32,090 nt of DNA from Candidatus Eiseniibacteriota bacterium (lineage in GTDB: Bacteria > Eisenbacteria > RBG-16-71-46). Both the position numbers and the translations under genes were made by a program. Below are positions 5,773 through 19,683 of this stretch, one piece after another. The stretch is taken from contig JBEBGT010000002.1 in assembly GCA_040081365.1 (NCBI GenBank), positions 1 through 32,090 on the forward strand. Reading direction: 5' to 3'. The number at the start of each line of letters is the position of its first letter. Position 1 is the first letter of the stretch. The notes under the pieces are model-generated. The model was not told where the DNA came from, did not search any database, and worked only from the letters and a program-made list of their open reading frames with translations.

Positions 5773-6122
5773 GGTGGGTTCCCTCGCTCACGGGGGCTCG
5801 CCTTGCGAGCGATCCCCGCGTCTCTGGTGCGGCACATCATCTTGATTCGGAACGAGTGGTTCCGACTGGGACCAGTGGCTGCGTGTGCCTGTGGACAACA
5901 TCGTTCCGTGGCACCGAACGATAGGGAGGTGGCGGCCAAGTCCAAGGGGTCCGTTGGTTGACCTCGTAATAGAACAGGCGTCGCGAACCGGTTTCACATC
6001 CACGCACCTTCGATCGAGGTGATGGTCACTTGGGCGTATTCAGTCGGGCGGGTTTGCTGCGCTACTATCGCTGGTATCGAGTCGGGCCTGATGTCACGGT
6101 CGCGATCGGAGTCGCGAATCCC

Positions 6123-8945
6123 ATGCGGTATGGAGCGATGCAGATGGAGCTTCGCCAGACGCTCGTGATGGCCGCACTGATACTCATGCCGACCTGCGGG
6201 GCGACGGCCGAGCCGAGCCTGCGCTACATGCAGCCACGTACGATGGCGCCGCTGGCGGACTCCGCGAAGGATCGATTCGGCGAAGCAGCGCTCGATCCGT
6301 CATTGGAGCCTTGGCAGCGCGACATCCTCCAGCGGCTGGCTATGGGAGAACGGCCCGAGGCCTTCTGGCGCGCGGTCGGACCGCAGCAGTCAAGTCCTTC
6401 CGCCACGGGCGAAGGTGCCGAGACCTGGGTGCCGATTCCGGGGCCCGCGAGGACCGAACACAGTACGATCTACGACCCCGTGCGGAACCGGTTGATCGTA
6501 TTCGGGGGATTTACCGATACGAACCCCGTGTGCAATGACCTGTGGACGCTCAATCTGTCTGGCGAACCAGTGTGGACCGAGTTGCATCCCACAGGCCCCG
6601 TGCCTCCCGGCCGCTATGAGCACACCGCAATCTACGATCCGGTTCGAGATCGGATGATCGTGTTCGGCGGTGTTGAAGACCTTCCCTGTCAGCCCGGGCC
6701 AGGGACCTGTTTCGCACTCGCCAACGACACTTGGGCCTTGTCGCTGACAGAACTGCGTTGGACTGATTTGAGCTCCGCAAGCCCCGCTCCGACCAAGCGG
6801 ATGGCGCACACCGCCATTTACGACTCCGCACGCGATCGGATGGTCGTCTTCGGCGGGATGGCTTCCAGGGGGCGAGCGCTCAACGATGGTTGGAGTCTCA
6901 ATCTCTCGGGAACACCGGAATGGTCACTCATGATGGGCGCAGCCCCATTCCCCGGACGCAACGCGCACTCCGCGGTCTACGACAGCCGCAGGGGAAGCAT
7001 GGTGATATTCGGCGGTGTGGACTCCCGCGGACCGTGCGCAGATTCCTGGTCGCTGTCGTTCTCGGCGCTGACTTGGACTGCGATCATCCCCGCGGACACT
7101 ACTCATCCGCGTGAGCACTACCATCACTCGGCGATCTACGATCCTGTGAAGGACCGGATGCTCGTCTTCGGCGGCACGGATTGGTATCCTCCGCAGAACT
7201 ACAGGTCGCCGACAAAGGAGCAGTGGGAGTTGTCGCTGAGCTCGAACGTCTGGTCGCGGATCGACGCAGTCGGGGCGCCGCCTGGACGGATCCTGCACAC
7301 CGCGGCTTACGATCCCGTCGGTCGCCGGATGATCGTTTTCGGCGGCTCCGTCGACGACTACTGGAGGGACGGTCCGCGCCGCGGTGATACGTGGGCCTAT
7401 CACCTCGACGCGGGCACATGGTCGCAGGTCATCCCGACGAGCCGACCGCCCGAGGGCCGTGCCGGGCACGCGGCCATCTACGACCCCGTACGCCAGCGCA
7501 TGATCATCCACGGTGGCTACAACTCGAGCTGCGAGTGCTTCTTCGACGATACGTGGCAGCTCTCGCTCGGTCGGGCTCCGGTGTGGTCGCCGCTGGCAAC
7601 CGTGGGCCCGGGACCGGTCGCGCGGGCGGGTCATGTCGCGGTCTATGACCCGGCGGGTGATCGCATGATCATCTTCGGTGGCGAAGAGAAGTGCGAGGAC
7701 GGTGAGTACTGTAGTCGGCCGGGCAACGATGCCTGGGCACTGTTACTCGGCACGGCGACCCCGATGTGGTCGCCGTTGTCGCCGGCTGGCGAGCCGCCGT
7801 CCGTCCGCTCGGGGGCAACCGCCGTGTATGACCCCGTCGGCCAGCGCATGGTCGTTTACGGTGGCTTCGACTTCTACACGATCGCATCCGACGTGTGGGC
7901 GCTCGAGCTGTCGGGCTCACCGACATGGACGCCGCTCACGCCCGCGGGGGTGTGGCCGGGAGCTCGCGTGGGGCACAGTGCGATCTACGAGCCGGACGGC
8001 CGGCAGATGGTGGTGTTCGGTGGCTTCGGCGCTGGCAACGAGACGCTGGCGCTCGAGCTGGCCGCGACGCCGGTCTGGCGGGTGCTGGTGCCCGGCTCGG
8101 CGGGCGACCCCGGGCCGCCGCCGCCGCGCGCGGATCACTCGGCGGTCTACGACCCCATCGAGGGCCGCATGCTGCTCCATGGCTACGACGGCTACACGGG
8201 TGAGAACAACGACACGTGGGCGCTCACGTTCGGGCCCGGGCCGGCGTGGTCGCGCGTGGCGCTTTCCAACTCGCCGCCGTACGGCCGCGTGGACCATGCC
8301 GCGGTGTACGACCCCGTGTGGCGCCGGATGGTGGTGCATGCCGGCGACCGCGGCTATCTGTACGACACTTGGGCACTGCAGTCGGACGTCGGCATCCCGA
8401 CGCCGGTGGCGCTGGCGTTGGTGAGCGCAATCGTGAAGGACGTCGGTGTCGAGCTGGAGTGGTTCTCAGCTGACGCGCAGGCGCTCGAGGCCACACTCTA
8501 CCGGCGCACGGACGAGTCGGAGTGGCGAGCGCTGTCGAGCGTGTCGGCGGATGGCAGCGGGCACGTGCGCTTCGTGGATCGTGCGCCATGCGCGGGTGAA
8601 AGAGCCTGCTACCGGCTGGGCTACATCGAGCAGGGTGTCGAGCGGTTCAGTGCCGAGACGTGGGTGGAATTGCCCGCCCGCATGCTGGCGCTGGCCGGGC
8701 TGAGTCCGAACCCCGCCATGGGCGACCTGGTCGCGTCGTTCTCGTTAACGAGTGCGGCGCCGGCCCGGTTGTCATTGCTCGACGTGACGGGTCGCGCGGT
8801 GGCAGTGCGGGAGGTCGGGTCACTCGGCCCCGGGCGGCACACCGTCGCGCTCGGCCGCTCGAGTGGCGTCCCGGCCGGGGTCTACTGGTTGCGCCTGGCG
8901 CAGGGCGGGCGATCGTTGAGCGTGCGCGGGGTGGTGATGCGGTGA
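6123..8945 (+). CDS. Secreted Kelch-repeat protein (12 blades) with an Ig-like domain and a FlgD-Ig-like C-terminal domain
   Basis: There are twelve units of the form H[ST]A[IV]YDPxxxRM[IV]VFGG ... W between about nt 6450 and 8390. A signal-peptide-like segment (LVMAALILMPTCGATAEP) follows the ATGs at 6123, 6138 and 6144. The track ORF start at 6030 is a TTG with a non-signal-like leader. The C-terminal domain (nt 8681-8945) reads SPNPAMGDLVASFSL...LSLLDVTGRAVAV...GVYWLRLAQGG. Confidence 0.85.
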   Translation: MRYGAMQMELRQTLVMAALILMPTCGATAEPSLRYMQPRTMAPLADSAKDRFGEAALDPSLEPWQRDILQRLAMGERPEAFWRAVGPQQSSPSATGEGAETWVPIPGPARTEHSTIYDPVRNRLIVFGGFTDTNPVCNDLWTLNLSGEPVWTELHPTGPVPPGRYEHTAIYDPVRDRMIVFGGVEDLPCQPGPGTCFALANDTWALSLTELRWTDLSSASPAPTKRMAHTAIYDSARDRMVVFGGMASRGRALNDGWSLNLSGTPEWSLMMGAAPFPGRNAHSAVYDSRRGSMVIFGGVDSRGPCADSWSLSFSALTWTAIIPADTTHPREHYHHSAIYDPVKDRMLVFGGTDWYPPQNYRSPTKEQWELSLSSNVWSRIDAVGAPPGRILHTAAYDPVGRRMIVFGGSVDDYWRDGPRRGDTWAYHLDAGTWSQVIPTSRPPEGRAGHAAIYDPVRQRMIIHGGYNSSCECFFDDTWQLSLGRAPVWSPLATVGPGPVARAGHVAVYDPAGDRMIIFGGEEKCEDGEYCSRPGNDAWALLLGTATPMWSPLSPAGEPPSVRSGATAVYDPVGQRMVVYGGFDFYTIASDVWALELSGSPTWTPLTPAGVWPGARVGHSAIYEPDGRQMVVFGGFGAGNETLALELAATPVWRVLVPGSAGDPGPPPPRADHSAVYDPIEGRMLLHGYDGYTGENNDTWALTFGPGPAWSRVALSNSPPYGRVDHAAVYDPVWRRMVVHAGDRGYLYDTWALQSDVGIPTPVALALVSAIVKDVGVELEWFSADAQALEATLYRRTDESEWRALSSVSADGSGHVRFVDRAPCAGERACYRLGYIEQGVERFSAETWVELPARMLALAGLSPNPAMGDLVASFSLTSAAPARLSLLDVTGRAVAVREVGSLGPGRHTVALGRSSGVPAGVYWLRLAQGGRSLSVRGVVMR

Positions 8946-8971
8946 GGTCCGACAGGAGGCGCTCACGGTAG

Positions 8972-9004
8972 GGCCTGCGCCTGCTGCGCGGCCGGCGTTT
9001 GTAA
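8972..9004 (+). pseudogene. Relic of the last ~10 codons of a P1B ATPase gene
   Basis: ggc ctg cgc ctg ctg cgc ggc cgg cgt ttg taa translates as GLRLLRGRRL*. The intact ATPase ends GLRLLRGRR*. Similarity is lost upstream of 8972. Confidence 0.5.
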
Positions 9005-9105
9005 CGCTCAGCGCAGCGCGGTCACCACGATGTTGTCGTAGTACACCGTGCACTGCGCGGCGCCGCCGGTGTAGGCGGGCAGCGCGATCGCGCCGGTGAG
9101 TCGCG
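8972..9105. repeat. Direct repeat copy B of the ATPase-3'/DUF1080-3' convergent junction
   Basis: See copy A. This copy contains an 11-codon relic of the ATPase C-terminus followed by the true 3' end of the intact DUF1080 gene. Confidence 0.8.
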
Positions 9106-9676
9106 CGTTCTTCACTTCGGGGCGGTCCAGCTTGAGCTCGCCGTTCACGAACACGCGGAAGCGAGTGCCGCGTGCTTCCACGCGCACGTGGTTCCACGCG
9201 CCGTTCGCGTTGGTGGCCGAGGCGCGCCCGAGCGGCCATTCGCGGTGGTACATGAGCACGTCCTGGTAGCTGCCGCCGCGCAGGTCCACGCCGATGCCGG
9301 TGTCCTCGTGCACGCGCACCACCACGCCCTTGTCAACGCCGCGCATCATGCACACGTCCACGTCCACGGCGACGTCGGTCCACGACGTGTCGCCCGCGTA
9401 GATCAGCGAGCGCAGCTGCTTCTCGTCGGGTAGATCGGCGCGCAGCATGCCGCGCACCACGCTCCACACGCCGTCGCGGTCCGGCCGCCAGCGCTCGAGC
9501 TTGCCGCTCGAGAAGTCTTCGGCGAACAGCACGCCGGTCGCCGGCTTGTTGAAGCGCGGCGGAGTGCTGGGCAGCGCACGGCGCGTCTCATCCGGTGCGG
9601 CCCCGAGCAACAGGAGCGTCGCGCCGGCGAAGAGCGCGCTGCGGACGATTCGGGCATCCATACGGCTGCGGACCAT
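9008..9676 (-). CDS. Secreted DUF1080 / LamG-like (3-keto-disaccharide-hydrolase-fold) protein
   Basis: I chose the start at ATG 9676 (MVRSRMDARIVRSALFAGATLLLLGAAPDE, signal-peptide-like); ATG 9661 is also possible. The body (WRPDRDGVWSVVRGMLRA ... WNHVRVEARGTRFRVFVNGELK ... TVYYDNIVV) resembles jelly-roll DUF1080 proteins. The family call comes from memory of the pattern, not a search. Confidence 0.7.
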   Translation of the reverse strand: MVRSRMDARIVRSALFAGATLLLLGAAPDETRRALPSTPPRFNKPATGVLFAEDFSSGKLERWRPDRDGVWSVVRGMLRADLPDEKQLRSLIYAGDTSWTDVAVDVDVCMMRGVDKGVVVRVHEDTGIGVDLRGGSYQDVLMYHREWPLGRASATNANGAWNHVRVEARGTRFRVFVNGELKLDRPEVKNARLTGAIALPAYTGGAAQCTVYYDNIVVTALR

Positions 9677-9829
9677 GGCACCCTCCGGGAACGGAGTCCA
9701 CCCGGACCCCGGTCCACCGGGAGTATCGGCGCTCGGACACCCGAGCACGAGGGGGGCGGGGCCCGCCGGGAACGCCGCTTTTCTGCCAAGCGCGGATGGT
9801 CCGCACGCCGCCACCGGCGCACCGGATGG

Positions 9830-9851
9830 GCGGGCGGCCCGAGCCGCCCGC
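9830..9851 (-). terminator. GC-rich stem-loop 8 nt downstream of the barrel-gene stop (candidate operon terminator, no U-tract)
   Basis: gcgggcggc (9830-9838), ccga loop, gccgcccgc (9843-9851): a perfect 9-bp stem. No T/U run follows on the transcribed strand, so it is not a canonical intrinsic terminator. Confidence 0.3.
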
Positions 9852-9859
9852 GGCCAGCC

Positions 9860-12031
9860 CTACAGCCGCACGCTCACGCCCGCCTGCAACTGGCGCGTGG
9901 TGCCGGTCTGGCCCTTCTGCTGTTCCCAGCCACCGTTCACGTACCAACGGCCACCGACCGCCAGATCGAGGTCGATACCCTGCCAGCGCTCGGTCTCCTC
10001 GAACCCCGTGGCACGGTCGCGCGTGCGGCGCGTGCCCGCGTTGAACTCGAAGTGCGACTGGCCGAGCGGATCGAACCCGGCGCCGAACGACGACAGCGCA
10101 CTTTCGGTGCCCGGGCTCGTGAACGCCGAGATGCGCGTGCGCACGCTGCACTGCCAGCGCGTCAGCCGGTACACCTCACCGCTCACCGACCAGGTGTCGG
10201 AGTGATCGCCACCTGAACCGGTGCGGTACTCGGCGCTGCTGCGGATGTGCTGCTTCAACTCGAGCGTGGTGCCGCCCCAGGCGCCCTGGCGGTAGCGATC
10301 GTCGAAGTCGGTCTCGGGCGTCTCGCGGTCGCGCCACAACCGCACGCTGCGGCGATTGTCGTAGCCCGACTGCAGCGCGAGCTGGGGCGTGATCGGCACG
10401 CGCATGGTCGCGAACGTGCTGGTCCACGCCAGCATGGGCTCGCCCATGTCGCGCTTCCAGCCCGTGTTGAGGTCGAGCTCCTGCGCCACCGACGCGCTCG
10501 CGCCCTTCGCGAACCACCAGCCCTGCGCGAATGCGAAGTCGCGGTTCACCGCGGCACCCCGGCGCGAGGTCACGCCGCCCACCGACACCGACCAGCGCTG
10601 TGCGGCGAGCGGCTTCTGGTGCCACTCCGCGAATGCGCCGCCTTCCACCAGATCACCCGACCAACCGAAGCGCAGCGGCTCGGGCTGCGTCCCCGCGAAC
10701 GCTCCATAGGTGTGGCGCTGATCGCCCACTTCGAGCAGGGCGCCGTCGAACAGGCTGATCGACGCCAGCGTGGGTGACGACTGCCGGCCGAGCGTGAAGC
10801 GCCGCCGGTCGTTCTTGTCGCGGAACGTGGTGGAGGCGCGATACACGCGCGAGAACTGGTCGACCACGGTGCCGGCATCGCCCGTGCGCACGGTGCGGCG
10901 CGCGCGCACGTCGATCGAGGCGTCCATGTGGCCGCCCATGCCGTCGCGTGCATCGGCACGCAGGTCGAGCGCGGGCTGCTGGTAGCGGCTGCCGGTGGAC
11001 TCCACGCTCAGCCAGCGGCCACCGAGACGGCCGCGCAGGCGCGAGCTGCGACGCGCGGCGCGACCCTTGGGCGGCGTGAGTACGGCGGCCACGCGGATCG
11101 AGTCGCCGCGCGCACTGGCCGTGCGCAGGCTATCCTCGGTGGCGGCCTGCCGGCGAAAGTCGCTGCGATAGCGCGCCACATCGCCCAGCGCGATGGCGGC
11201 GCGCGTCCACAGCGTGTCGCACGACGCACGCTTCGACGACACGAACGTCACCCGCAACCGTGCGATCGTCTGCCCGTCGCGCAGTACCTCGACCGTGTCA
11301 CCCGCGGTGAGGCCGTCCATCTGGCCGGCGTCGACGTAGGCGCTGGCACCCGCCAGGTAGCTGATGCGCGATGTGCGCAGCGTCGCGCCACCACTCGTCG
11401 CGTTCGCGCGCGGAGCGGCACTGGCCGCGGCCGGTGATGATGCCGGCTTCGAGGTGGCCGGCGCGGGCTCCGGGTTCGTGCGCACGACTGGCGCCGCCGG
11501 CCTGGCCGCCACCGGCAACGGCGCGGGGGCGACCGCCGTGGGCACGCTCGGCGTGCGGGCCGGGCGGGTCGCGGCGGCCGAGGTTTCGCTCGGCACCGCG
11601 CCGGGGGCCTTCGTCTGCACGACGGCCGCAGGGGTACGCACCGGCGGCGTCACCGTGGCTGGAACGGGCGCCGGAGTCGTCGCGATCGGCTTCGCGGCGA
11701 CCGGAACGGTGGGTGCGGGAGAGGCGGGCGCCGCCGGCGGCACCGGCTTCACGCCCGCCGTCGATGCGTTCGTCGCGGAGCTGTCCGCCACCACCGCGGG
11801 TACGGGGCCGGCGGTCTTCGGCTTCACGTTCGTGCTCGACCACACGACATTGGCGGGTGCAGCGGGCTTGGCCTTGGTGCTGTCCGGCTTCGCGGCCGGC
11901 TTCTTGAACTGCGCGCTCGACCACACCACGGTCGCGGCCGGGGCGGTGCCGAACGACACGGTGAGCAATGCCGCCGTGATCAGGGCGGTGAGGGCTGGTG
12001 CGAGTGCGGGTCGGTCCATGGCGCGCCTCAT
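9860..12031 (-). CDS. Putative outer-membrane beta-barrel protein with a long N-terminal Pro/Ala-rich linker
   Basis: ATG 12031 overlaps the upstream cytochrome stop (ATGA, 12028-12031). Signal peptide: MRRAMDRPALAPALTALITAALLTVSFGTAPAA. A Pro/Ala/Thr/Val-rich region of ~185 aa lies at nt 11356-11914. It is followed by a small beta-rich domain and then ~440 aa of alternating hydrophobic/polar strand-like segments rich in G, R, W and Y (e.g. RWSVSVGGVTS, FAFAQGWWFAK, RWYVNGGWEQQ). The protein ends GVSVRL, not a classical C-terminal Phe. The longer track ORF (to 12946) is a frame-shadow of the cytochrome gene. Confidence 0.72.
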   Translation of the reverse strand: MRRAMDRPALAPALTALITAALLTVSFGTAPAATVVWSSAQFKKPAAKPDSTKAKPAAPANVVWSSTNVKPKTAGPVPAVVADSSATNASTAGVKPVPPAAPASPAPTVPVAAKPIATTPAPVPATVTPPVRTPAAVVQTKAPGAVPSETSAAATRPARTPSVPTAVAPAPLPVAARPAAPVVRTNPEPAPATSKPASSPAAASAAPRANATSGGATLRTSRISYLAGASAYVDAGQMDGLTAGDTVEVLRDGQTIARLRVTFVSSKRASCDTLWTRAAIALGDVARYRSDFRRQAATEDSLRTASARGDSIRVAAVLTPPKGRAARRSSRLRGRLGGRWLSVESTGSRYQQPALDLRADARDGMGGHMDASIDVRARRTVRTGDAGTVVDQFSRVYRASTTFRDKNDRRRFTLGRQSSPTLASISLFDGALLEVGDQRHTYGAFAGTQPEPLRFGWSGDLVEGGAFAEWHQKPLAAQRWSVSVGGVTSRRGAAVNRDFAFAQGWWFAKGASASVAQELDLNTGWKRDMGEPMLAWTSTFATMRVPITPQLALQSGYDNRRSVRLWRDRETPETDFDDRYRQGAWGGTTLELKQHIRSSAEYRTGSGGDHSDTWSVSGEVYRLTRWQCSVRTRISAFTSPGTESALSSFGAGFDPLGQSHFEFNAGTRRTRDRATGFEETERWQGIDLDLAVGGRWYVNGGWEQQKGQTGTTRQLQAGVSVRL

Positions 12032-13971
12032 CGGGTATGACACGAATAACAGGCCGTGCTCGTGTAGCTGTAGCCGCTGCGGCCCCGGTGGTGTCCGTCG
12101 GTCACGGCCTTGTCCGAATGCGGGTGACAGCTGAGGCAGTTGAATGTCGCGAAGTTCGTGGGCGAGCTGTGGCAGTCGGTGCACGAGTTCCACCGCCCGG
12201 CGTGACCGCGCGAGTAGATGCGGAAGTACTGCGTGTCGTGATTGAACGTCGCGCCGCTCCATCGGGTGGTGTTGTGGCAGCTTGCACACGCGGTCGCCGT
12301 GAATCCCGCAGCCGGGTGGTTCGGTACCGCGGTGCTGTAGTCGGTCATGTGGCACGACTGGCAGGTGGTGGGCTTGCCCTTGTAGATGCCATCGGCGTGA
12401 CAGCTCTGGCAGGTGGTGGCGATGTGCGCGCCGGTGAGCGGGAACAGCGTCGTGCTGTGGTTGAACGCGCCCCCGACCCAGGTGGTGGTGCCGTGGCAGC
12501 TCGCACACGACGCACTCGGGAATGCCGCGGGGGTGTGCGTGGGTACCGCCGTGGAGTAGTCCGTCGCGTGGCACGCGAAGCACGCCATGGGTTTGCCCTT
12601 GTAAACGCCGTCCCCGTGGCAGTCGGTGCACAGCGTGGTGCGATGCGCGCCGGTGAGCGCGAACGCGGTGGTGTTGTGATCGAACACCGCGCCCGCCCAA
12701 GTGGTGGTGTTGTGGCAGCTCGCGCATGCGCTGCTCGGGAACCCGGTGGGGCTGTGGGTCGGGATCGCGCCGGTATAGTCGGCCTGGTGGCAGCTGATGC
12801 ACGTGCCGGACTTGCCATTGTAGACGCCGTCGGAATGACAGCTCTGGCAGGTCGTCGTGCGGTGTGCGCCCGTGAGCGGGAAACTCGTGGCGTTGTGGTC
12901 GAACGTGGCACCCACGAAGGACGTCGTGTTGTGGCAGCTCGTGCACGATGCGGCCGCGAAGCCCGATGCCAGATGGGGCGGCTGCGCGCGGTCATAGTCG
13001 ACCTGGTGGCAGGCGATGCATGCCGTCGGCTTGCCGTTGAACACGCCGTCGGAGTGACAGCTCTGGCACGTCGTGCTGCGGTGCGCACCGGTGAGCGGGA
13101 ATGACGTCGTACTGTGGTCGAACGCCGACCCGGCCCAGCCCGTGGTGTTGTGACACGTCGCGCAGGCGCTGGCCGCGAAGCCCGACGCGGCGTGCGGGGG
13201 CTGGGCGCGGTTGTAGTCCAACTGGTGGCACGACGCGCAGTCCTTGGGCGTGCCCCGGTAGCGGCCGCCGGTGTGGCAGCTCTCGCACGATGTGGTGACG
13301 TGCGTGCCGGTGAGCGGGAAGCCCGAGCGCTGGTGGTCGAACTTGGCGTTCTCCCACGTGCCCGCCGCGTGGCAGGCCTGGCAATCGGTGGGGAAGCCGC
13401 CGCCGGCGTGGTCGGGATTCTTCGCGTTCCGATACTCGTCCATGTGACACGAGCGGCATTCGGCTTGTGTGTTCACGAACTGCAGCTGGCCCTGCGAGCT
13501 GGGCTTGTGGCAGCCCTCGCAGTCGAGCGCGGCGTGCCCGCCCGTGAGCGGGAAGCGCGTGAGCTGATGGGCGCGCACCATGGGGCCGCGGTCCACGAAG
13601 CTGCGCGCCGAATGGCAGCGCGAGCAGTCGGTGCCCATCTCACCACGGTGCGGATCCTGATGGCACGAGGCGCACTGCGTCTGCGACGCCGCGAAGTCGA
13701 GCGACGTGTGGCAGCCCAGGCACGACGCGGCGGCGTGCGCGCCGTCCAGGCGGAAGCCGAACTTGCCGTGGTCGAACTTGCTGCTGATCTTCGCCGGCTT
13801 CCAGCCATCGGAGCCGTGGCAGAGTTCACACGCCTCGCGGTACTTGCCGTGCGGGTTCTCGACGCGCGGGCGCGCTGCAGCCCACGCGCTACCCAGCGCG
13901 ATCAGCGGCAGCACGACCAGGGCGATGGCGAGCAGCCATCGGGTCGGGCGCGGGTCAAGGTCGGGCAGCAT
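12028..13971 (-). CDS. Multihaem c-type cytochrome, 25 CxxCH motifs in 647 aa
   Basis: I counted 25 CxxCH motifs in the translation. The N-terminal signal/anchor is RWLLAIALVVLPLIALGSAWAAA. c7/c3-like context motifs recur (F[DN]H...FPLTGAH...CxxCH). A GGAGG Shine-Dalgarno sequence lies 7 nt upstream of ATG 13971, inside the end of the upstream gene. Confidence 0.95.
   Translation of the reverse strand: MLPDLDPRPTRWLLAIALVVLPLIALGSAWAAARPRVENPHGKYREACELCHGSDGWKPAKISSKFDHGKFGFRLDGAHAAASCLGCHTSLDFAASQTQCASCHQDPHRGEMGTDCSRCHSARSFVDRGPMVRAHQLTRFPLTGGHAALDCEGCHKPSSQGQLQFVNTQAECRSCHMDEYRNAKNPDHAGGGFPTDCQACHAAGTWENAKFDHQRSGFPLTGTHVTTSCESCHTGGRYRGTPKDCASCHQLDYNRAQPPHAASGFAASACATCHNTTGWAGSAFDHSTTSFPLTGAHRSTTCQSCHSDGVFNGKPTACIACHQVDYDRAQPPHLASGFAAASCTSCHNTTSFVGATFDHNATSFPLTGAHRTTTCQSCHSDGVYNGKSGTCISCHQADYTGAIPTHSPTGFPSSACASCHNTTTWAGAVFDHNTTAFALTGAHRTTLCTDCHGDGVYKGKPMACFACHATDYSTAVPTHTPAAFPSASCASCHGTTTWVGGAFNHSTTLFPLTGAHIATTCQSCHADGIYKGKPTTCQSCHMTDYSTAVPNHPAAGFTATACASCHNTTRWSGATFNHDTQYFRIYSRGHAGRWNSCTDCHSSPTNFATFNCLSCHPHSDKAVTDGHHRGRSGYSYTSTACYSCHTR
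12289..13383 (-). repeat. Five exact-period (73 aa / 219 nt) tandem trihaem modules inside the 25-haem cytochrome, plus a partial sixth
   Basis: The first Cys of each module falls at residues 197, 270, 343, 416, 489 and 562, a constant 73-residue spacing. Module consensus: CxxCHNTTxWxGAxFDHxxTxFPLTGAHxxTxCQSCHxDGVYxGKPxxCxxCHxxDYxxAxPxHxxxGFxxxx. Confidence 0.9.
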
Positions 13972-13974
13972 GGG

Positions 13975-15882
13975 TCACCTCCCGGGGCGGGACTGCGCGC
14001 GCGAACGCGGCTTGCGATCGCGCGGAGGACTGGTGGTGCCGCGCGGGGCCGAGGCATCCGGCGCCGCGGGCGCATGGCACTGCTCACAACGGGTCGCGGT
14101 GGGCCGGTACACGATGGCCATGGTGCCGTCGCTCATGCGGCCGTTGCGATGGCACGCGGCGCACGGCGTGCGCGAGTGCGCACCCTGCAGCCGGAACGCC
14201 GAGTCGCGATCGTGGTCGAACTTGCGCGCCCCGATGAACGTGTTGAAGTCATGGCACGATTCACACGCGCCCTTGTCCTTGCGCACCGCGAACTGGCCGT
14301 GGTGCGTGTCGTCGTGGCAGTCCTTGCAGATGCGTGCCTTGCTGTCGAACTTGAGCGCGCGTAGTTCGGTGCTGCCCTTGAGCGTCGAACCGCCCGGCGC
14401 CTTATCGAGCTCGGCGTGGCACTTCTGGCATGGCACGGCCATGTGTGCGCCCTCGAGCGGGAACACGCAATCCGCGTGCGCGCGGCCGTCGTAGGTGGAC
14501 GGCTGGAATGCCGCCATGGAGTGGCAGGCGAGGCACGCCGCCTGATGCGGACGCAGCCCGCCCGGCGAGAACCGCCCCGCGTGGGGATCGCTGTGGCAGT
14601 CGATGCACGCCGCGCGCGCCGGCCGCATGCGCACGCGCGCCGGGCCGAGTAGCGCGGCTTCGCCGCTGCGCTCCGCCGCACGCGTGTGACACTTGCCGCA
14701 GGCCGTGTTGGCGTGCGCGCCGTCGAGCGGGTACTTGGTGCGCTGATGCTCGGGCACCGGCCAGGTCGAGGGTGAGAACGCCTTCACGTCGTGACAGGTG
14801 GCGCAGTCCGTGGGCTTGCCTGCCACCGTGGCCGTGCCCTGGTGCGCGTCCTTGTGGCAGTCCATGCAGCGCGCGAACTTGGGACGTTGACCGCCGAAGC
14901 GGGCTTCGTGGCAGCCCTCGCACTTCACGTTCGCGTGCGCGCCGCGCAATGGGTACTTGGTCTGCTCGTGGTCGAAGCCCGAGCGGTTGACCGCCTTCCA
15001 GTCGCTGGTCACGTGGCACTTGGCGCACGCACCCTTGAACCGGCCGGCATGCGGGTCCTTGTGGCACGAGATGCAATCGTTGTGCGCCACGGGCTTCCAG
15101 CGTGGCTTCCAGGCGCCCTTGGCGTCGCGACCGCTGTTCACCCCGGCCGTGGCATGGCAGGCCGCGCAGGCGGGCTTCTGGTGCGCACCCGTGAGTGGGT
15201 ATTTCGTGAGCGCGTGGTCGAAGCCGGGCGCGGGACTCCAGCGGATCTGCGAGTGGCACGAGGCGCAATCCTTGCCGAGCGCATTGTCATGCACGTCGCG
15301 ATGACAGGAGACGCACGTGGTCTCGAGGCCCAACCACGAGCGGGTGCGGTCCTTCACGCGCAGCAACGGTGCAGCTGGCGAGCGGTGCAGCGCGGGCTTG
15401 TGACAATCGCGACAGGCGAGCGAGCCATGTTTGCCCTCGAGCACGAAGCCGGCCTGCGCGTGATCGAACTTCTCCGGCGCGCCGCCTTCCCAGGCCACGA
15501 GCGCGAACGCCCGGCCACCATGGTCGGGATGGCACGACGCGCAGGCGAGCGTGGTCTTGCGTGCGTGAAAGCCGCGCTGGTTGGATCTCATCCAACCCAC
15601 CTCGGTGTGGCAATCCAGGCAGCGCTGGTCCATGCCGGCCTTGCCGCTGCCGTTCGGGTGGCAGTTGAAGCACGCCGTGGTGCCATCGAGTGAGGCATGG
15701 GGCGCGGACAGCGGGCCGGGCGAGACCTGGGCGTGCGCTCCCGCGGGCAGTCCCAGCAGCAGGCCCAGCGCGCACGCCGGTCCTGCGCCGCGCGCCCGCC
15801 ACGGGCCGCGGCCGTGCCGTGGTCGGCCCGGGGGCCTGGTCCTGGATGACGTGCCGTCGTGCGGGTCATGAGCCGCGCTCAT
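13975..15882 (-). CDS. Multihaem c-type cytochrome, 20 CxxCH motifs in 635 aa
   Basis: I counted 20 CxxCH motifs. The signal-peptide-like N-terminus is ...GPACALGLLLGLPAGAHAQ. ATG 15882 overlaps the upstream stop (ATGA, 15879-15882). The stop at 13975 lies 3 nt before the next gene's ATG. Confidence 0.93.
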   Translation of the reverse strand: MSAAHDPHDGTSSRTRPPGRPRHGRGPWRARGAGPACALGLLLGLPAGAHAQVSPGPLSAPHASLDGTTACFNCHPNGSGKAGMDQRCLDCHTEVGWMRSNQRGFHARKTTLACASCHPDHGGRAFALVAWEGGAPEKFDHAQAGFVLEGKHGSLACRDCHKPALHRSPAAPLLRVKDRTRSWLGLETTCVSCHRDVHDNALGKDCASCHSQIRWSPAPGFDHALTKYPLTGAHQKPACAACHATAGVNSGRDAKGAWKPRWKPVAHNDCISCHKDPHAGRFKGACAKCHVTSDWKAVNRSGFDHEQTKYPLRGAHANVKCEGCHEARFGGQRPKFARCMDCHKDAHQGTATVAGKPTDCATCHDVKAFSPSTWPVPEHQRTKYPLDGAHANTACGKCHTRAAERSGEAALLGPARVRMRPARAACIDCHSDPHAGRFSPGGLRPHQAACLACHSMAAFQPSTYDGRAHADCVFPLEGAHMAVPCQKCHAELDKAPGGSTLKGSTELRALKFDSKARICKDCHDDTHHGQFAVRKDKGACESCHDFNTFIGARKFDHDRDSAFRLQGAHSRTPCAACHRNGRMSDGTMAIVYRPTATRCEQCHAPAAPDASAPRGTTSPPRDRKPRSRAQSRPGR

Positions 15883-17312
15883 CCGGCCATCCGGTCGCTG
15901 CCGGAGTCGTCAGCGGCCAGCGCCTTCTTCACGATGCGCACACCGCAGCGCTCGACGAACGGGTAGGGGGCTTCGCCACCGATGCGCACGATGACATCGT
16001 CGGCCGGCACCACGACGTCGCCCGCTGCCGTGGTGAGCACGGCATCGTGCGCGCGGATCTCGCGCACCTGGCTGCCGAGCAGCAGCCGCACGTGCCCCGA
16101 CTTCACCGCCGCGTCGATCTTCGCGCGATTGCGGTCCTTCACGCGCCCGAACTCGGCGCCGCGGTACGACAGCGTGACGCGCGTGCCGTCCTGGTTGGCC
16201 AGGCCGACCGCGGACTCCACGGCGCTGTCACCCCCGCCCACCACCAGCACGGCGCGACCGGCGAACGCCTCCATCTCGACGATGTCGTAGAACACGTGCC
16301 CCTGGGCCTCGCCCGTCACGCCCAGCCGGCGCGGCGTACCACGGCGGCCCAGCGCCAGGACCACGCGCCGTGCCCGGAACCCGTGTTCGGCGGTGCGCAC
16401 CACGAAGTGCGCGCCTTCGCGCGTCACCGACTCCACGCGCGAGCCGGTGCGCACTTGCAGCCCTGTGCGCGTGATGATCGTCTGCCACACCTGCACGAGC
16501 GATTCCTTGGAGGCGTCCGACACCCAGAGGTCGCCGTACACCGGCACGCGCAGTGGTTCGGCGAACAGTACCTTGTGGCGCGGGTAGCGCGCGATGGTGT
16601 CCGCGAGCGTGCCCTGCTCCAGCACCGTGTAGCGCAGCTGGCTTGCCAGGGCTTCGAGTCCGGCTGACAGCCCGGCGGGGCCCGAGCCGACCACGACCAC
16701 GTCGAGGACGCCGGCTTCGGCCGGCGTGCGTTCCGCGCGCAACGAGGCCGCCACATGTTCCATGGCGAGCTTGCCTTCGTTGATGGCGTTCTTGATGAGC
16801 CCGCGGCCGCCGAGCTCGCCCACCACGTAGAGCCCGGGCACGTCGCGCGATTCGAAGTGCTCGTTCAGGTTGGGCACTTCCACGGTCTGCACGGCCTCGC
16901 CCGCCGTGACGAAGATCGCGCCCACGGGGCAGGCTGCCACGCAGTCGCCGTGGCCCTTGCACGCGGCCAGGTTCACCAGCGCGATCTTGTTCACGATGCT
17001 CAGTGCGCCGGGTTCGGGGCACGCGTCCACGCACGTGCCGCAACCCGCGCACTGATCGGCACGCACGATGGCATGCAGTGCGCCGCCGTCCTGGCCGGCC
17101 GCCACCGGTGTGGCGAGCGGGGCGCTGACGACCGCGAACGCCTGGAGCGGCGCCCGGCACGACGGGCAATGCGTGCTGCCGCTGGCGACCTGCGCGCGAC
17201 ACCGCGGGCAGGCCGTGCTCGCCGCCACCACACTGCCGCGTTGGCGGATGTGCTGGACGACGAACAGGGCGGTCAGGACGACGACGCCGAGCGTGGTGGG
17301 CCATTGCTGCAT
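15879..17312 (-). CDS. Membrane-anchored Zn-ribbon / 2x FeS (ferredoxin-type) / FAD-NAD(P)-binding oxidoreductase
   Basis: ATG 17312 (MQQWPTTLGVVVLTALFVVQHI, one TM helix) lies 1 nt after the upstream stop. The Zn-ribbon is CPRCx10CPSC. The ferredoxin motifs are CAGCGTCVDACP and CKGHGDCVAACP. The dinucleotide folds are DVVVVGSGPAGLSAG and AVLVVGGGDSAVESA. The track ORF start at 17540 overlaps the upstream gene and was rejected. Confidence 0.88.
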   Translation of the reverse strand: MQQWPTTLGVVVLTALFVVQHIRQRGSVVAASTACPRCRAQVASGSTHCPSCRAPLQAFAVVSAPLATPVAAGQDGGALHAIVRADQCAGCGTCVDACPEPGALSIVNKIALVNLAACKGHGDCVAACPVGAIFVTAGEAVQTVEVPNLNEHFESRDVPGLYVVGELGGRGLIKNAINEGKLAMEHVAASLRAERTPAEAGVLDVVVVGSGPAGLSAGLEALASQLRYTVLEQGTLADTIARYPRHKVLFAEPLRVPVYGDLWVSDASKESLVQVWQTIITRTGLQVRTGSRVESVTREGAHFVVRTAEHGFRARRVVLALGRRGTPRRLGVTGEAQGHVFYDIVEMEAFAGRAVLVVGGGDSAVESAVGLANQDGTRVTLSYRGAEFGRVKDRNRAKIDAAVKSGHVRLLLGSQVREIRAHDAVLTTAAGDVVVPADDVIVRIGGEAPYPFVERCGVRIVKKALAADDSGSDRMAG

Positions 17313-17313
17313 G

Positions 17314-18426
17314 TCACGGCCCCCCGAACACGTCGAGCCGAACGCCCCCCACCCACACCGCCACCGCCACGTGGATGATGACGGCGAACAGTGCGGTGAG
17401 CGCGAACGGCCGGTGCGCCACATGCCACCACGCGAACACCCGGCGCGTGGCCTCGAGCGCGCGCAACTGCTGGGCCAGCGCCATCTCGGTGCGGGCCAGC
17501 TTGAGCGCGTTGTCGAGCTCGTCGCCATGCAACGCTTCATGCCCCGCGCTGCCGTGTGCCCACTGCTTGGACAACCGGCGCAGCGTGCGCCAGCGCGTCC
17601 AGTCGTCCGAGGCCAGACGCAGGAACGTCTTCACGAGCCCGAGCCCCTCGTACGGGCGCGGGTCGAGCGCCAGGTCACGCTCGAGTTCCTGCGGCGTGAA
17701 TCCGGTGGCGACCGCGAGGTTCGTGAGCAGCGCGCGGCGCTGGCTGCCCGCCTCCTCGAGCGACAGCTCGAGCCCCGAACGGCTGCGCGGGATGTGCGTG
17801 TACAGGTAGCGCCCGACGATGCCCGACAGCGACACGATCACCATGGCGAGCATGCCCATGCCGATCAGCCCGTCGAAGTGCCAGCCCGCGTGCACCGCCG
17901 CGATCCCCGGCAGCGCCAGGCCCATGACGATATGCACGTTCATCCAGCCACCCAGCGCGCCGGTCCACGACAGCCACTTGGCCATCTTGCGCAGCGGGTA
18001 GAGCCACATGAACACGAACAGCGCCAGGGCGAGCACGCCGAACGCCAACCCCACCGGGCCGGACGACTTGAGCAGTCCGTGCAGCGGGTGACGCAGCCGC
18101 ATGGCCTCCGGCGCGAGGTAGTAGGGCAGCCCCCACGCGGTGACCAGCGCGGTGAGCCCCACGAGCACGAACAGCGGTAGGCCCGTTGCCGGATCGCGCT
18201 GCGATTCGGCCGCGGGCGCCGGGCTCACGACTCGCAGGGCAGGCGCGGCCTGCCCGCCGTCCGCGGCGGAGTGCTCCGCGTGGCCGGATCGGGGCGGCAG
18301 TGCGCCGTGCGAAATGAGTGGGGTCGAGGACAGTTTCGTGGCCTTCCGCAAGGGTTGTCGGGCGGGGTGGCAAGGAACCACAACGACTTGGGCCTCAAAG
18401 GGCCCGAGCCGCCGGCGAGAGGGCAA
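17314..18426 (-). CDS. Integral membrane protein (about 5 TM) with two Hx13H pairs; candidate dihaem b-type electron-transfer subunit
   Basis: Predicted TM helices lie at about aa 82-104, 123-145, 160-181, 186-207 and 333-358. The His pairs are H165/H179 in TM3 and H338/H352 in TM5, each with 13 intervening residues. The start is uncertain: 18426 is a TTG and only the longest option, and the first ~80 aa are not membrane-like. The stop is at 17314. Confidence 0.7.
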   Translation of the reverse strand: MPSRRRLGPFEAQVVVVPCHPARQPLRKATKLSSTPLISHGALPPRSGHAEHSAADGGQAAPALRVVSPAPAAESQRDPATGLPLFVLVGLTALVTAWGLPYYLAPEAMRLRHPLHGLLKSSGPVGLAFGVLALALFVFMWLYPLRKMAKWLSWTGALGGWMNVHIVMGLALPGIAAVHAGWHFDGLIGMGMLAMVIVSLSGIVGRYLYTHIPRSRSGLELSLEEAGSQRRALLTNLAVATGFTPQELERDLALDPRPYEGLGLVKTFLRLASDDWTRWRTLRRLSKQWAHGSAGHEALHGDELDNALKLARTEMALAQQLRALEATRRVFAWWHVAHRPFALTALFAVIIHVAVAVWVGGVRLDVFGGP

Positions 18427-18762
18427 AAGTGGTGCCGGGAAACCATCATCCGTGCATAATCAACTAGTACCGCTTCAAATGAGTCATAGTTCCCACAAAT
18501 GGCGTAAGATTATGTGTTCCATCACGTTTACGACCATGCCGGGTCAGCTCCGGTTTCCGGTGCGGCCAAGATCGTCGGTTGTTTTCGGCAACTCATGTAA
18601 GACGTTGGGACCACGTCGAGCGGTCGCCGGATTCCGGTCCCAATGCCTCCCACCCACGATCTTCGCCGCACAACCTAAGTGCTTGCAGCGGGCCCGTTCC
18701 GGGCCTTTCGGAGCGCCCCTCCCCGGTTGGAGGCCGCCCCGCCGCGTGCTAGCTTGGGTTCC
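18427..18762. promoter_or_regulatory. Divergent intergenic region with a locally AT-richer core (about 18440-18560); presumed promoters for the electron-transfer cluster and arginase
   Basis: This is the only stretch in the window that is visibly not GC-rich (e.g. catcatccgtgcataatcaactagtaccgcttcaaatgagtcatagttcccacaaatggcgtaagattatgtgttcc). It lies between divergent gene starts. I could not confidently identify a specific -35/-10 or operator. Confidence 0.3.
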
Positions 18763-19683
18763 ATGGCCAAGAAACGTCGCAACATCGGCATCATCGGAGT
18801 GCCCATCGACCTCGGCGCGGGTCGTCGTGGTGTCGACATGGGCCCGTCCGCGATCCGTATCGCCGACCTCGAGAAGCGCCTGGAAGAACTCGGGCACAAG
18901 GTCGAGGACTATGGCGATCTCGACGTGATGATCCCCGAGACGCAGAAGGTCGGCACCGGCAAGATGCGCTACAAGAAGCCCATCCTGTCGGCGTGCAAGG
19001 ACCTCATGAAGGCCGTCGACAAGTGCCTCACCGAGGGCCGCATGCCCTTGGTGCTGGGCGGTGATCACAGCATCGCGATCGGGTCCGTGGCCGGCTCCAC
19101 CAACTACTACGCGCGTCAGGGCGAGTCGCTGGGCTTGATCTGGTTCGATGCCCACGGCGACGCCAACACGCCCGAGACCACGCCGAGCGGCAACATCCAC
19201 GGCATGTCGTTGGCGGTGTCGCTCGGTTTCGGCGACCCCGACCTGGTGGGCATGGGCGGTCGCTCACCCAAGGTGCAGCCGCGCAACACGGTGCTCATCG
19301 GCATCCGCGATCTCGACAACGGCGAGCGCGACTTCCTCAAGAAGAGCGGCGTGACGTGCTACACCATGCGCGACCTCGATGAACGCGGCATGCGCGACGT
19401 GCTCGACGAGGCGATCCGCGCCGCCAGCGACGGCACGGCGGGCATCCACCTGTCGTTCGATCTCGACGTGGTGGACCCCGAGGACGCGCCCGGCACCGGT
19501 ACGCCGGTGTGGGGCGGCATCAGCTACCGCGAGGCGCACCTGGCCATGGAGATGTTCAACGACCGCGCGAACATCGTGGCGCTGGACCTGGTCGAGGTGA
19601 ACCCGGTGCTCGATTCGCAGAACATGACCGGGATCCTCGCCGCCGAACTCGCACAGAGCGCGCTGGGCAAGACGATCCTGTAG
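18763..19683 (+). CDS. rocF: Arginase (ureohydrolase family)
   Basis: The N-terminus IGIIGVPIDLGAGRRGVDMGPSAIR closely resembles bacterial arginases. The Mn-binding motifs GGDHSIAIGS, DAHGDANT and SFDLDVVDP are present. I chose the start at ATG 18763 (MAKKRRNIG...). Confidence 0.92.
   Translation: MAKKRRNIGIIGVPIDLGAGRRGVDMGPSAIRIADLEKRLEELGHKVEDYGDLDVMIPETQKVGTGKMRYKKPILSACKDLMKAVDKCLTEGRMPLVLGGDHSIAIGSVAGSTNYYARQGESLGLIWFDAHGDANTPETTPSGNIHGMSLAVSLGFGDPDLVGMGGRSPKVQPRNTVLIGIRDLDNGERDFLKKSGVTCYTMRDLDERGMRDVLDEAIRAASDGTAGIHLSFDLDVVDPEDAPGTGTPVWGGISYREAHLAMEMFNDRANIVALDLVEVNPVLDSQNMTGILAAELAQSALGKTIL

Follow-up and report, generated by a model that had tools for sequence, protein, structure and literature searches.

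A cassette-built 25-haem cytochrome as probable variable-length wire subunit of a PCC3-like porin-cytochrome operon in Candidatus Eiseniibacteriota

The gene cytB of Candidatus Eiseniibacteriota bacterium encodes a 25-haem c-type cytochrome with five tandem trihaem cassettes of 73 amino acids (aa) each, and the number of such cassettes differs between orthologues. It lies in a 32,090-nt stretch of DNA (assembly GCA_040081365.1, contig JBEBGT010000002.1, positions 1 to 32,090 of the forward strand), which was analyzed as a whole and is called the window; all coordinates are positions in this window. On the minus strand, the genes for an inner-membrane protein (IMP), a Fer4/FAD oxidoreductase, the 20-haem cytochrome cytA, cytB and an outer-membrane barrel protein follow each other in this order, and a DUF1080 gene is next downstream. 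We consider it probable (roughly 0.7) that cytB serves as the haem-wire subunit, variable in length, of a trans-envelope porin-cytochrome electron conduit resembling PCC3. The PCC3 porin-cytochrome clusters were defined bioinformatically and comprise a porin, a ‘periplasmic’ and an ‘extracellular’ cytochrome and an IMP of ~300 residues (He et al. 2017, PMC5566968).

Results

Haem motifs and periodicity of cytB

Re-translation of cytB gave 647 aa with 25 CxxCH motifs, which corresponds to 25.9 aa per haem. All 50 Cys sit within these motifs and His are present 52 times; neither CxxCK or CXnCH variants (motif count) nor non-cytochrome domains (domain scan) were found in the protein. Six motifs are N-terminal (first Cys at residues 48, 84, 100, 116, 151 and 172), fifteen belong to the cassettes W1 to W5 (197/229/245, 270/302/318, 343/375/391, 416/448/464 and 489/521/537) and four are C-terminal (562, 597, 612 and 641). 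This is the partition into 6 N-terminal, 15 periodic and 4 C-terminal haems which a first-pass annotation of the window had given. The spacing inside the cassette is 32-16-25, with a sum of 73 aa, in 5/5 cases. Variable spacing was looked for, but the first Cys of successive units falls at residues 197, 270, 343, 416, 489 and 562 with a constant distance of 73, and the five tandem cassettes occupy exactly the coordinates claimed before (12289..13383). Compared pairwise in register, W1 to W5 share 44-63% aa identity and 60-71% nt identity, whereas the flanking 73-aa blocks in the same register reach 5-26% aa identity with the cassettes. Tandem Repeats Finder reported a period of 219 nt, 4.3 copies, 71% matches and a score of 621 for cytB DNA. 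The periodic 25-haem array is not a chance pattern.

Each cassette contains three His outside of CxxCH (in P-x-H, F-D/N-H and G-A/T-H), which are invariant or nearly so in 30 homologues; the three distal-ligand candidates named for every cassette in the first-pass annotation are thus conserved. Since six His per cassette are invariant or nearly invariant in all and no Met is conserved, the haems of cytB are probably all bis-His. The N-terminal domain is the best-conserved part of the protein (47-87% identity among orthologues) and carries a PMVRAHQL motif; for the C-terminal domain, the identity is 34-77%. The N-terminus resembles a Sec signal peptide when inspected by eye, so that cytB is a probable secreted-type c-type cytochrome.

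A catalytic function was considered, in which cytB might reduce or oxidize a soluble substrate and the cassettes would feed an active-site haem. NCBIfam and Pfam indicate weak similarity to HmcA, DmsE and MtrC-type proteins, a group with some members in enzyme complexes, but all named enzyme-family scores are far below their cut-offs. The enzyme reading was rejected as highly improbable because every CxxCH is matched by a conserved candidate for the sixth ligand (52 His for 25 haems).

Cassette number in orthologues

Orthologues with 60-89% identity to cytB were used for the alignment of close relatives. These proteins have 501, 574, 647 or ~797 aa, their termini align well and the differences are whole 73-aa blocks. 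A broader sample consisted of 45 species-representative genome loci, which were found with 9 close sequences as seed and belong mostly to metagenome-assembled genomes (MAGs) of Candidatus Eisenbacteria, Gemmatimonadales and Krumholzibacteriia. The cytB orthologues in these loci have 1 to 12 cassettes, i.e. 13 to 46 haems. Among the best 120 of >7,400 homologues, the haem count equals 10+3n (19, 22, 25, ... 46) in 94, and each additional haem lengthens the protein by 23.9 aa (r = 0.98). The cassette is therefore strongly supported by these comparisons as the unit of length variation, just as the first-pass annotation had supposed when it let cassette number set the length. The ‘perfectly conserved register’ claimed at the same time holds inside cytB and for the family as the mode of the cassette period (73 aa), but not for all relatives, which span 66-78 aa (76 aa in many Gemmatimonadales).

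The companion cytochrome behaves differently: in the orthologous operons compared, cytA has 20 or 23 haems and cytB 13 to 42. This bears on an explanation of cytB as a periplasm-spanning strut, which the first-pass annotation implies and according to which the protein would be a rigid wire, with a cassette number tuned to bridge inner and outer membrane exactly. A linear chain of 25 haems would measure ~22-25 nm, taking ~1 nm per haem as in MtrA, and this is a periplasm-like distance. Further, the cassette type of cytB matches that of the periplasmic multihaem cytochromes of PCC3, for which subunits with 21, 24 or 27 haems are described and a periplasm-spanning as well as a capacitor role has been discussed (Hoover et al. 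2023, PMC10734462). However, the 13 to 46 haems of cytB mean a more than three-fold length span in related MAG operons, whereas cytA keeps to 20 or 23. One fixed gap cannot require both, and a bridge of constant length would more likely be cytA. We judge the strut to be improbable.

W1 is kept even in the orthologues with 13 haems, and the first cassette of every orthologue matches W1 best. Even where the overall identity is 82%, the internal cassettes cannot be paired cleanly as one-to-one orthologues; this agrees with recombination among them without proving it. Between W1 to W5, dS is 0.6-1.2 and dN/dS is 0.25-0.9; these values are saturated and biased by the 70% GC codon usage and show ‘old copies’ and no more. 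The longest exact DNA match between cassettes of cytB has 11-17 nt. Being old and without exact matches >17 nt, the cassettes are a poor substrate for recombination today. The earlier idea of such a substrate hence fails for cytB itself, but it fits other family members, in which cassettes within one protein are up to 90-97% aa identical (P0091, P0092, P0029, L007, L005, P0069 and others). In those members, the identity between every second cassette (146 aa) is often higher than between neighbours, which suggests recent tandem duplication of 146-aa units with two cassettes and six haems.

Several Eisenbacteria MAGs (L007, L009, L011, L013 and L015) hold a second, long cytB paralogue with 40-46 haems. 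A tblastn search around the long paralogue gave no match to IMP, Fer4/FAD or barrel genes in the same locus.

Operon structure

The minus-strand operon is tightly packed, with gaps of 1-4 nt or ATGA overlaps at the gene junctions (Table 1). The Fer4/FAD gene and cytA overlap by ATGA, the stop codon of cytA is separated by 3 nt from the ATG of cytB, GGGAGG is present upstream of cytB, and the ATG of the barrel gene overlaps the cytB stop codon (ATGA). From these junctions, cytB is predicted to be translationally coupled within the five-gene operon. The synteny of all five genes is kept in ~30 loci of three phyla. A scan of 8800..18800 for promoters and terminators yielded nothing informative.

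Table 1. Genes of the operon, the adjacent DUF1080 gene, and the parts of cytB (positions in the window).
Feature	Position	Strand	Basis
Inner-membrane protein (IMP), ~300 aa, 5 transmembrane helices	17314..18228	-	hydropathy, motifs; start codon uncertain
Fer4/FAD oxidoreductase, membrane-anchored	15879..17312	-	Pfam
cytA, 635 aa, 20-haem cytochrome, irregular trihaem-like modules	13975..15882	-	CxxCH count
cytB, 647 aa, 25-haem c-type cytochrome	12028..13971	-	open reading frame and motif count
cytB, probable Sec signal peptide, residues 1-31, A-W-A|A	13879..13971	-	by eye; hydrophobic helix 7-31 in AlphaFold2 model
cytB, N-terminal six-haem domain, residues 32-196, non-periodic	13384..13878	-	CxxCH
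cytB, cassette W1, residues 197-269, trihaem, anchored	13165..13383	-	register
cytB, cassette W2, residues 270-342, trihaem, internal, variable	12946..13164	-	register
cytB, cassette W3, residues 343-415, trihaem, internal, variable	12727..12945	-	register
cytB, cassette W4, residues 416-488, trihaem, internal, variable	12508..12726	-	register
cytB, cassette W5, residues 489-561, trihaem	12289..12507	-	register
cytB, C-terminal four-haem domain, residues 562-647	12031..12288	-	CxxCH; cassette register at start, divergent after
Outer-membrane barrel protein, 723 aa	9860..12031	-	AlphaFold2 and Foldseek
DUF1080 / 3-keto-disaccharide-hydrolase-fold protein	9008..9814	-	Pfam PF06439

The operon context was also used to weigh the possibility that cytB is mainly an electron capacitor, which would store 25 electrons per molecule in the periplasm, with the cassette number giving capacity instead of reach. 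Such a role has been published as a proposal for GSU1996, GSU0592 and GSU2210 and also for a 40-haem Anaeromyxobacter protein, for PCC3 and for other giant multihaem cytochromes, and an element which sets capacity would tolerate free variation of cassette number. Against this, the operon linkage and the translational coupling with barrel and IMP point to through-conduction, and the conservation of both terminal domains suggests specific docking at either end. Storage and conduction can coexist; storage as the main function appears rather unlikely.

Partner proteins

The IMP has five hydrophobic helices with WX3HX13H on transmembrane helices 3 and 5 and SGxxG on helix 4. In the window, these motifs read W-MNV-H-x13-H, SG-IV-G and W-HVA-H-x13-H, and each is at least 90% conserved in 33 homologues. 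Pfam gave weak hints only (Ni_hydr_CYTB, E 0.039; Ferric_reduct, E 6.7). Based on helices and motifs, the IMP is a probable dihaem-b, ferric-reductase-like transmembrane electron carrier. NCBI records list some IMP homologues (P0436, P0485) as ‘pyridine nucleotide-disulfide oxidoreductase’, a name which was probably transferred from a neighbouring or fused Fer4/FAD gene.

The Fer4/FAD oxidoreductase is composed of an N-terminal transmembrane helix, a zinc ribbon, a 2x[4Fe-4S] ferredoxin and a Pyr_redox_3 FAD/NAD(P)-binding domain. Its gene is invariably next to the IMP gene (30+ loci, including L046, L050 and L051); the two point the same way in Eisenbacteria-type loci, but are divergent in Gemmatimonadales and Alphaproteobacteria. 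The recurrence of this pair in Eisenbacteria, Gemmatimonadales, Qipengyuania, Sphingomonas and another proteobacterial locus suggests a split NOX/ferric-reductase-like (NOX/FRE-like) input module, which would connect NAD(P)H to the haem chain.

The 635 aa and 20 haems of cytA correspond to 31.8 aa per haem, and a Sec-type signal peptide was recognized by eye. The barrel protein has no Pfam match. It consists of a signal peptide, an extension of ~190 aa, a small beta domain and a 22-strand beta-barrel. For 9860..11431, AlphaFold2 predicted 22 antiparallel strands (pLDDT 83.6, pTM 0.65), with the barrel modelled confidently in the C-terminal 390 residues, and Foldseek matched this model to usher, OprD and AlgE outer-membrane barrels (E 4e-9 to 1e-6). 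In all, 252 homologues were found, and the family consensus ends with ...R-F. The extension (~11431..11960, minus strand) is of low complexity and rich in Pro/Ala/Thr/Val; it follows the signal peptide, ahead of the folded domains. It is restricted to the closest relatives (709-768 aa), while most homologues have 520-560 aa.

The DUF1080 gene is kept downstream of the barrel gene in ~15 Eisenbacteria-type loci with 57-71% identity, but not in Gemmatimonadales; whether its product is part of the conduit system is uncertain. Farther downstream of the operon, the G+C content is 0.63 at 4001..7000 compared to ~0.71 elsewhere in the window. The dip covers a protein of 926 aa, which has a FlgD_ig-like domain at its C-terminus (2992..5772, minus strand), and the beginning of a Kelch-repeat protein of 971 aa (6030..8945, plus strand). 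It may indicate that DNA was acquired, or else that secreted repeat proteins are peculiar in composition.

Family size and relation to known cytochromes

More than 7,400 homologues of cytB were found at E ≤ 1e-10 in a 90%-clustered database, and the family comprises 5,123 representative clusters at E ≤ 1e-3 in a 50%-clustered library. Among the matches listed, the source names are ‘hypothetical protein’ or evident misannotations only. The largest member found, P0241, has 94 CxxCH in 2,321 aa; P0242 and P0245 contain 81 and 79 CxxCH in single polypeptides, and these giants still have ~25 aa per haem. Hence, 25 haems are few for a family reaching 94. The 40-haem cytochrome of Anaeromyxobacter, with a count of 10+3x10, may be a further candidate for this family. 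Uncharacterised cytochromes with >100 haem motifs have been reported in surveys.

The Pfam family PF14522 (‘Cytochrome c7 and related cytochrome c’) matches cytB in seven stretches with 110.1 bits (E 4.7e-32; gathering threshold 24.8), and model positions 12-67 align to residues 339-396, in cassette register. The model TIGR04257 (nanowire_3heme) did not list the whole protein even at E ≤ 10 and gave 14.3 bits (E 0.035) for a two-cassette fragment, below its cut-off of 40; this score is in line with the first-pass statement that the repeat organisation is distinct from that of GSU1996. For TIGR03508 and TIGR03507 (MtrA/DmsE and MtrC/OmcA), cytB reached 33.7 of the required 192.2 bits and 25.3 of 209.3 bits, respectively. 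A profile of 26 cassettes aligned by hhalign to PpcA (sequence checked against 1OS6) was collinear with it, but the probability was only 9.9%. In the PDB, no sequence match to whole cytB was found at E ≤ 0.01, and the 26-cassette profile had motif-level matches only, to reaction-centre cytochromes and OmcS. By these searches, the PDB holds no solved relative of cytB or its cassette.

A close relation was found elsewhere. The 67-68-aa trihaem cassettes of Qipengyuania vulgaris and Sphingomonas sp. PAMC 26617, which belong to 21-haem cytochromes in clusters of like gene layout, match the cassette profile in hhalign with 99.8% probability (E 6e-28), and differ from the 73-aa cassette mainly in the linker bearing the first distal His. 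Judged by profile similarity, the cytB cassette is clearly homologous to these alphaproteobacterial cassettes, whereas it appears only distantly related to the Geobacter c7 proteins. The latter comparison concerns GSU1996 and GSU0592 (12 haems) and GSU2210 (27 haems), likewise single chains of ~70-80-aa trihaem domains which form a linear haem ‘nanowire’ (structure 3OV0), with four domains in GSU1996; the concept of such single-chain wires originated with these three proteins. The distal His and the three CxxCH follow in the same order in PpcA, and both types fall under PF14522. However, the haem spacing is 32/16 residues in cytB and 24/14 in PpcA, each GSU1996 domain has one His-Met haem whereas the cytB cassettes appear to be all bis-His, and GSU1996 stands alone while cytB is part of a porin/IMP operon.

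MtrCAB, MtoAB and the Geobacter complex OmbB-OmaB-OmcB also combine multihaem cytochromes with an outer-membrane beta-barrel and move electrons across the outer membrane. They show no significant sequence relation to the present proteins (DmsE/MtrA and MtrC scores of 25-42 bits versus cut-offs of 192-209). Their haem number is fixed at 8-12, and they are without cassette array, FRD-like IMP or Fer4/FAD partner.

Discussion

Comparison with PCC3

The operon shares several properties with PCC3. A gene for an outer-membrane barrel is part of the cluster, and 22 strands are predicted for the porin of L. cholodnii as well. Two very large multihaem cytochromes are built from repeats with haem sites and are rich in Thr/Ser/Ala/Gly; the values of 25.9 (cytB) and 31.8 (cytA) aa per haem compare with 22-39 (median 26) for the cytochromes of PCC3, which are rich in small residues and have internal repeats and variable haem numbers (PMC5566968). 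In both cases, one cytochrome is nearly constant in size (21-27 haems in PCC3) and the other is highly variable: the ‘periplasmic’ cytochrome of PCC3 has a median of 21 haems and trihaem repeats of 66-70 residues, and the ‘extracellular’ one has 10-85 haems (PMC5566968). Finally, the ~300-aa IMP agrees in its five transmembrane helices, with SGxxG on helix 4 and WX3HX13H on helices 3 and 5. In PCC3, SGxxG and the two WX3HX13H motifs were read as ferric-reductase-like sites for two b haems (PMC5566968). Because the IMPs of PCC4 share the motifs, they do not separate PCC3 from PCC4.

There are also differences. PCC3 is found in Proteobacteria, including lichen-associated Alphaproteobacteria and an Erythrobacter (PMC5566968), whereas the operons described here are from Eisenbacteria, Gemmatimonadota and Krumholzibacteriota-type MAGs. 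The regular 73-aa trihaem cassette sits in the variable, porin-adjacent cytochrome, and a Fer4/FAD gene, which is not described for PCC3, lies between IMP and cytochromes. Bridge loci exist in Qipengyuania (ex-Erythrobacter) and a lichen Sphingomonas, in which the identity to the window proteins is 28% for the IMP, 41% for Fer4/FAD and 33% for cytA. In Q. vulgaris DSM 17792 (locus L046, 5392..12197) and Sphingomonas sp. PAMC 26617 (L050, 7444..13935), a compact version of the cluster is seen. Besides Fer4/FAD and IMP, it encodes two cytochromes, one with 21 haems and 67-68-aa cassettes and the other with 5 haems, and an outer-membrane protein of 606-717 aa.

Taken by its gene content and motifs, the operon of the window is best classed as PCC3-like. 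That porin-cytochrome clusters contain multihaem cytochromes which are built from repeats and vary in haem number has been known since 2017 (PMC5566968). Of most use among the new points are the clean series of 1-12 cassettes flanked by fixed end domains, the contrast with the constant cytA and the conserved Fer4/FAD partner. In the literature on extracellular electron transfer clusters of peat Acidobacteriota and Verrucomicrobiota, on MHCscan and on Ca. Effluviviacota, the cytB family is not described.

Proposed mechanism

In the preferred reading, an NAD(P)H/FAD/Fe-S module on the cytoplasmic side would exchange electrons with the two b haems of the IMP, and the path would continue along cytA and then cytB to or through the barrel. 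Flow could be in either direction, and the natural partner may be metal oxide, humics, Fe(II) or another cell. The conserved N- and C-terminal domains of cytB would be docking surfaces for partners, and each internal cassette would add about three closely packed haems, or roughly 2.5-3 nm of wire. The unconstrained length of cytB, next to a cytA of fixed size, makes one free end most likely for cytB, which would thus be a porin-proximal, outward-reaching (or storage) element and not a strut across a fixed gap. The array may evolve by tandem duplication and deletion of units of one or two cassettes.

Several points weigh against this interpretation. The cytB family is known from sequence alone, and PCC3 systems themselves are predicted only (PMC5566968, PMC10734462). 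The connection to PCC3 is drawn from architecture, motifs and the alphaproteobacterial bridge loci. When the Qipengyuania IMP was used as query for IMP homologues, none of the best 120 carried the name of Sideroxydans or Leptothrix, the genera of the founding PCC3 proteins. By its repeat type, cytB is like the ‘periplasmic’ cytochrome of PCC3, but by gene position and length variability it is like the ‘extracellular’ one, so that a periplasmic and an extracellular location are both conceivable. No lipobox Cys was found in cytB and no secretion-system gene nearby. The Fer4/FAD protein is not reported in PCC3, and adjacency is what suggests its role. The AlphaFold2 model of cytB (30-sequence alignment, without haems) is of low confidence (pLDDT 63.9, pTM 0.29), so that the rigidity, the extended geometry and the haem-haem distances are putative; Foldseek of this low-confidence, haem-less model against the PDB gave no match.

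A more specific version of the conduit is put forward tentatively and should be regarded as doubtful at present. The operon could be a quinone-independent trans-envelope electron exporter, NOX/FRE-like but split, with cytB as a cell-surface wire. Electrons would run from the NAD(P)H/FAD/2x[4Fe-4S] protein via the dihaem-b IMP and the fixed, periplasmic 20-haem cytA to cytB. The reach of cytB would be set per lineage in steps of three haems through duplication and deletion of cassettes, with orthologues ranging from 13 to 46 haems and the family reaching 94.

Implications

Within a very large class of cytochromes, which had been noticed earlier and is experimentally uncharacterised, cytB is a modest member. 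The family occurs in abundant uncultured phyla of soil, groundwater and wastewater. If the operons are working conduits, extracellular electron transfer (or uptake) extends to Eisenbacteria and Gemmatimonadota. The conserved Fer4/FAD partner of the IMP may show how PCC3-type systems are linked to cytoplasmic metabolism. The compact clusters of Qipengyuania and Sphingomonas, which are cultured aerobic Alphaproteobacteria, are possible experimental models. Natural variants with 1-12 cassettes and the same end domains offer a ready test of the effect of haem number on conduction, storage and reach, and the cytB series can guide the design of synthetic protein wires with a chosen length. Should the exporter version be true, the array would be a genetically tunable ‘extension lead’ which is widespread in uncultured phyla of soil and sediment (Eisenbacteria, Gemmatimonadota and Krumholzibacteriota).

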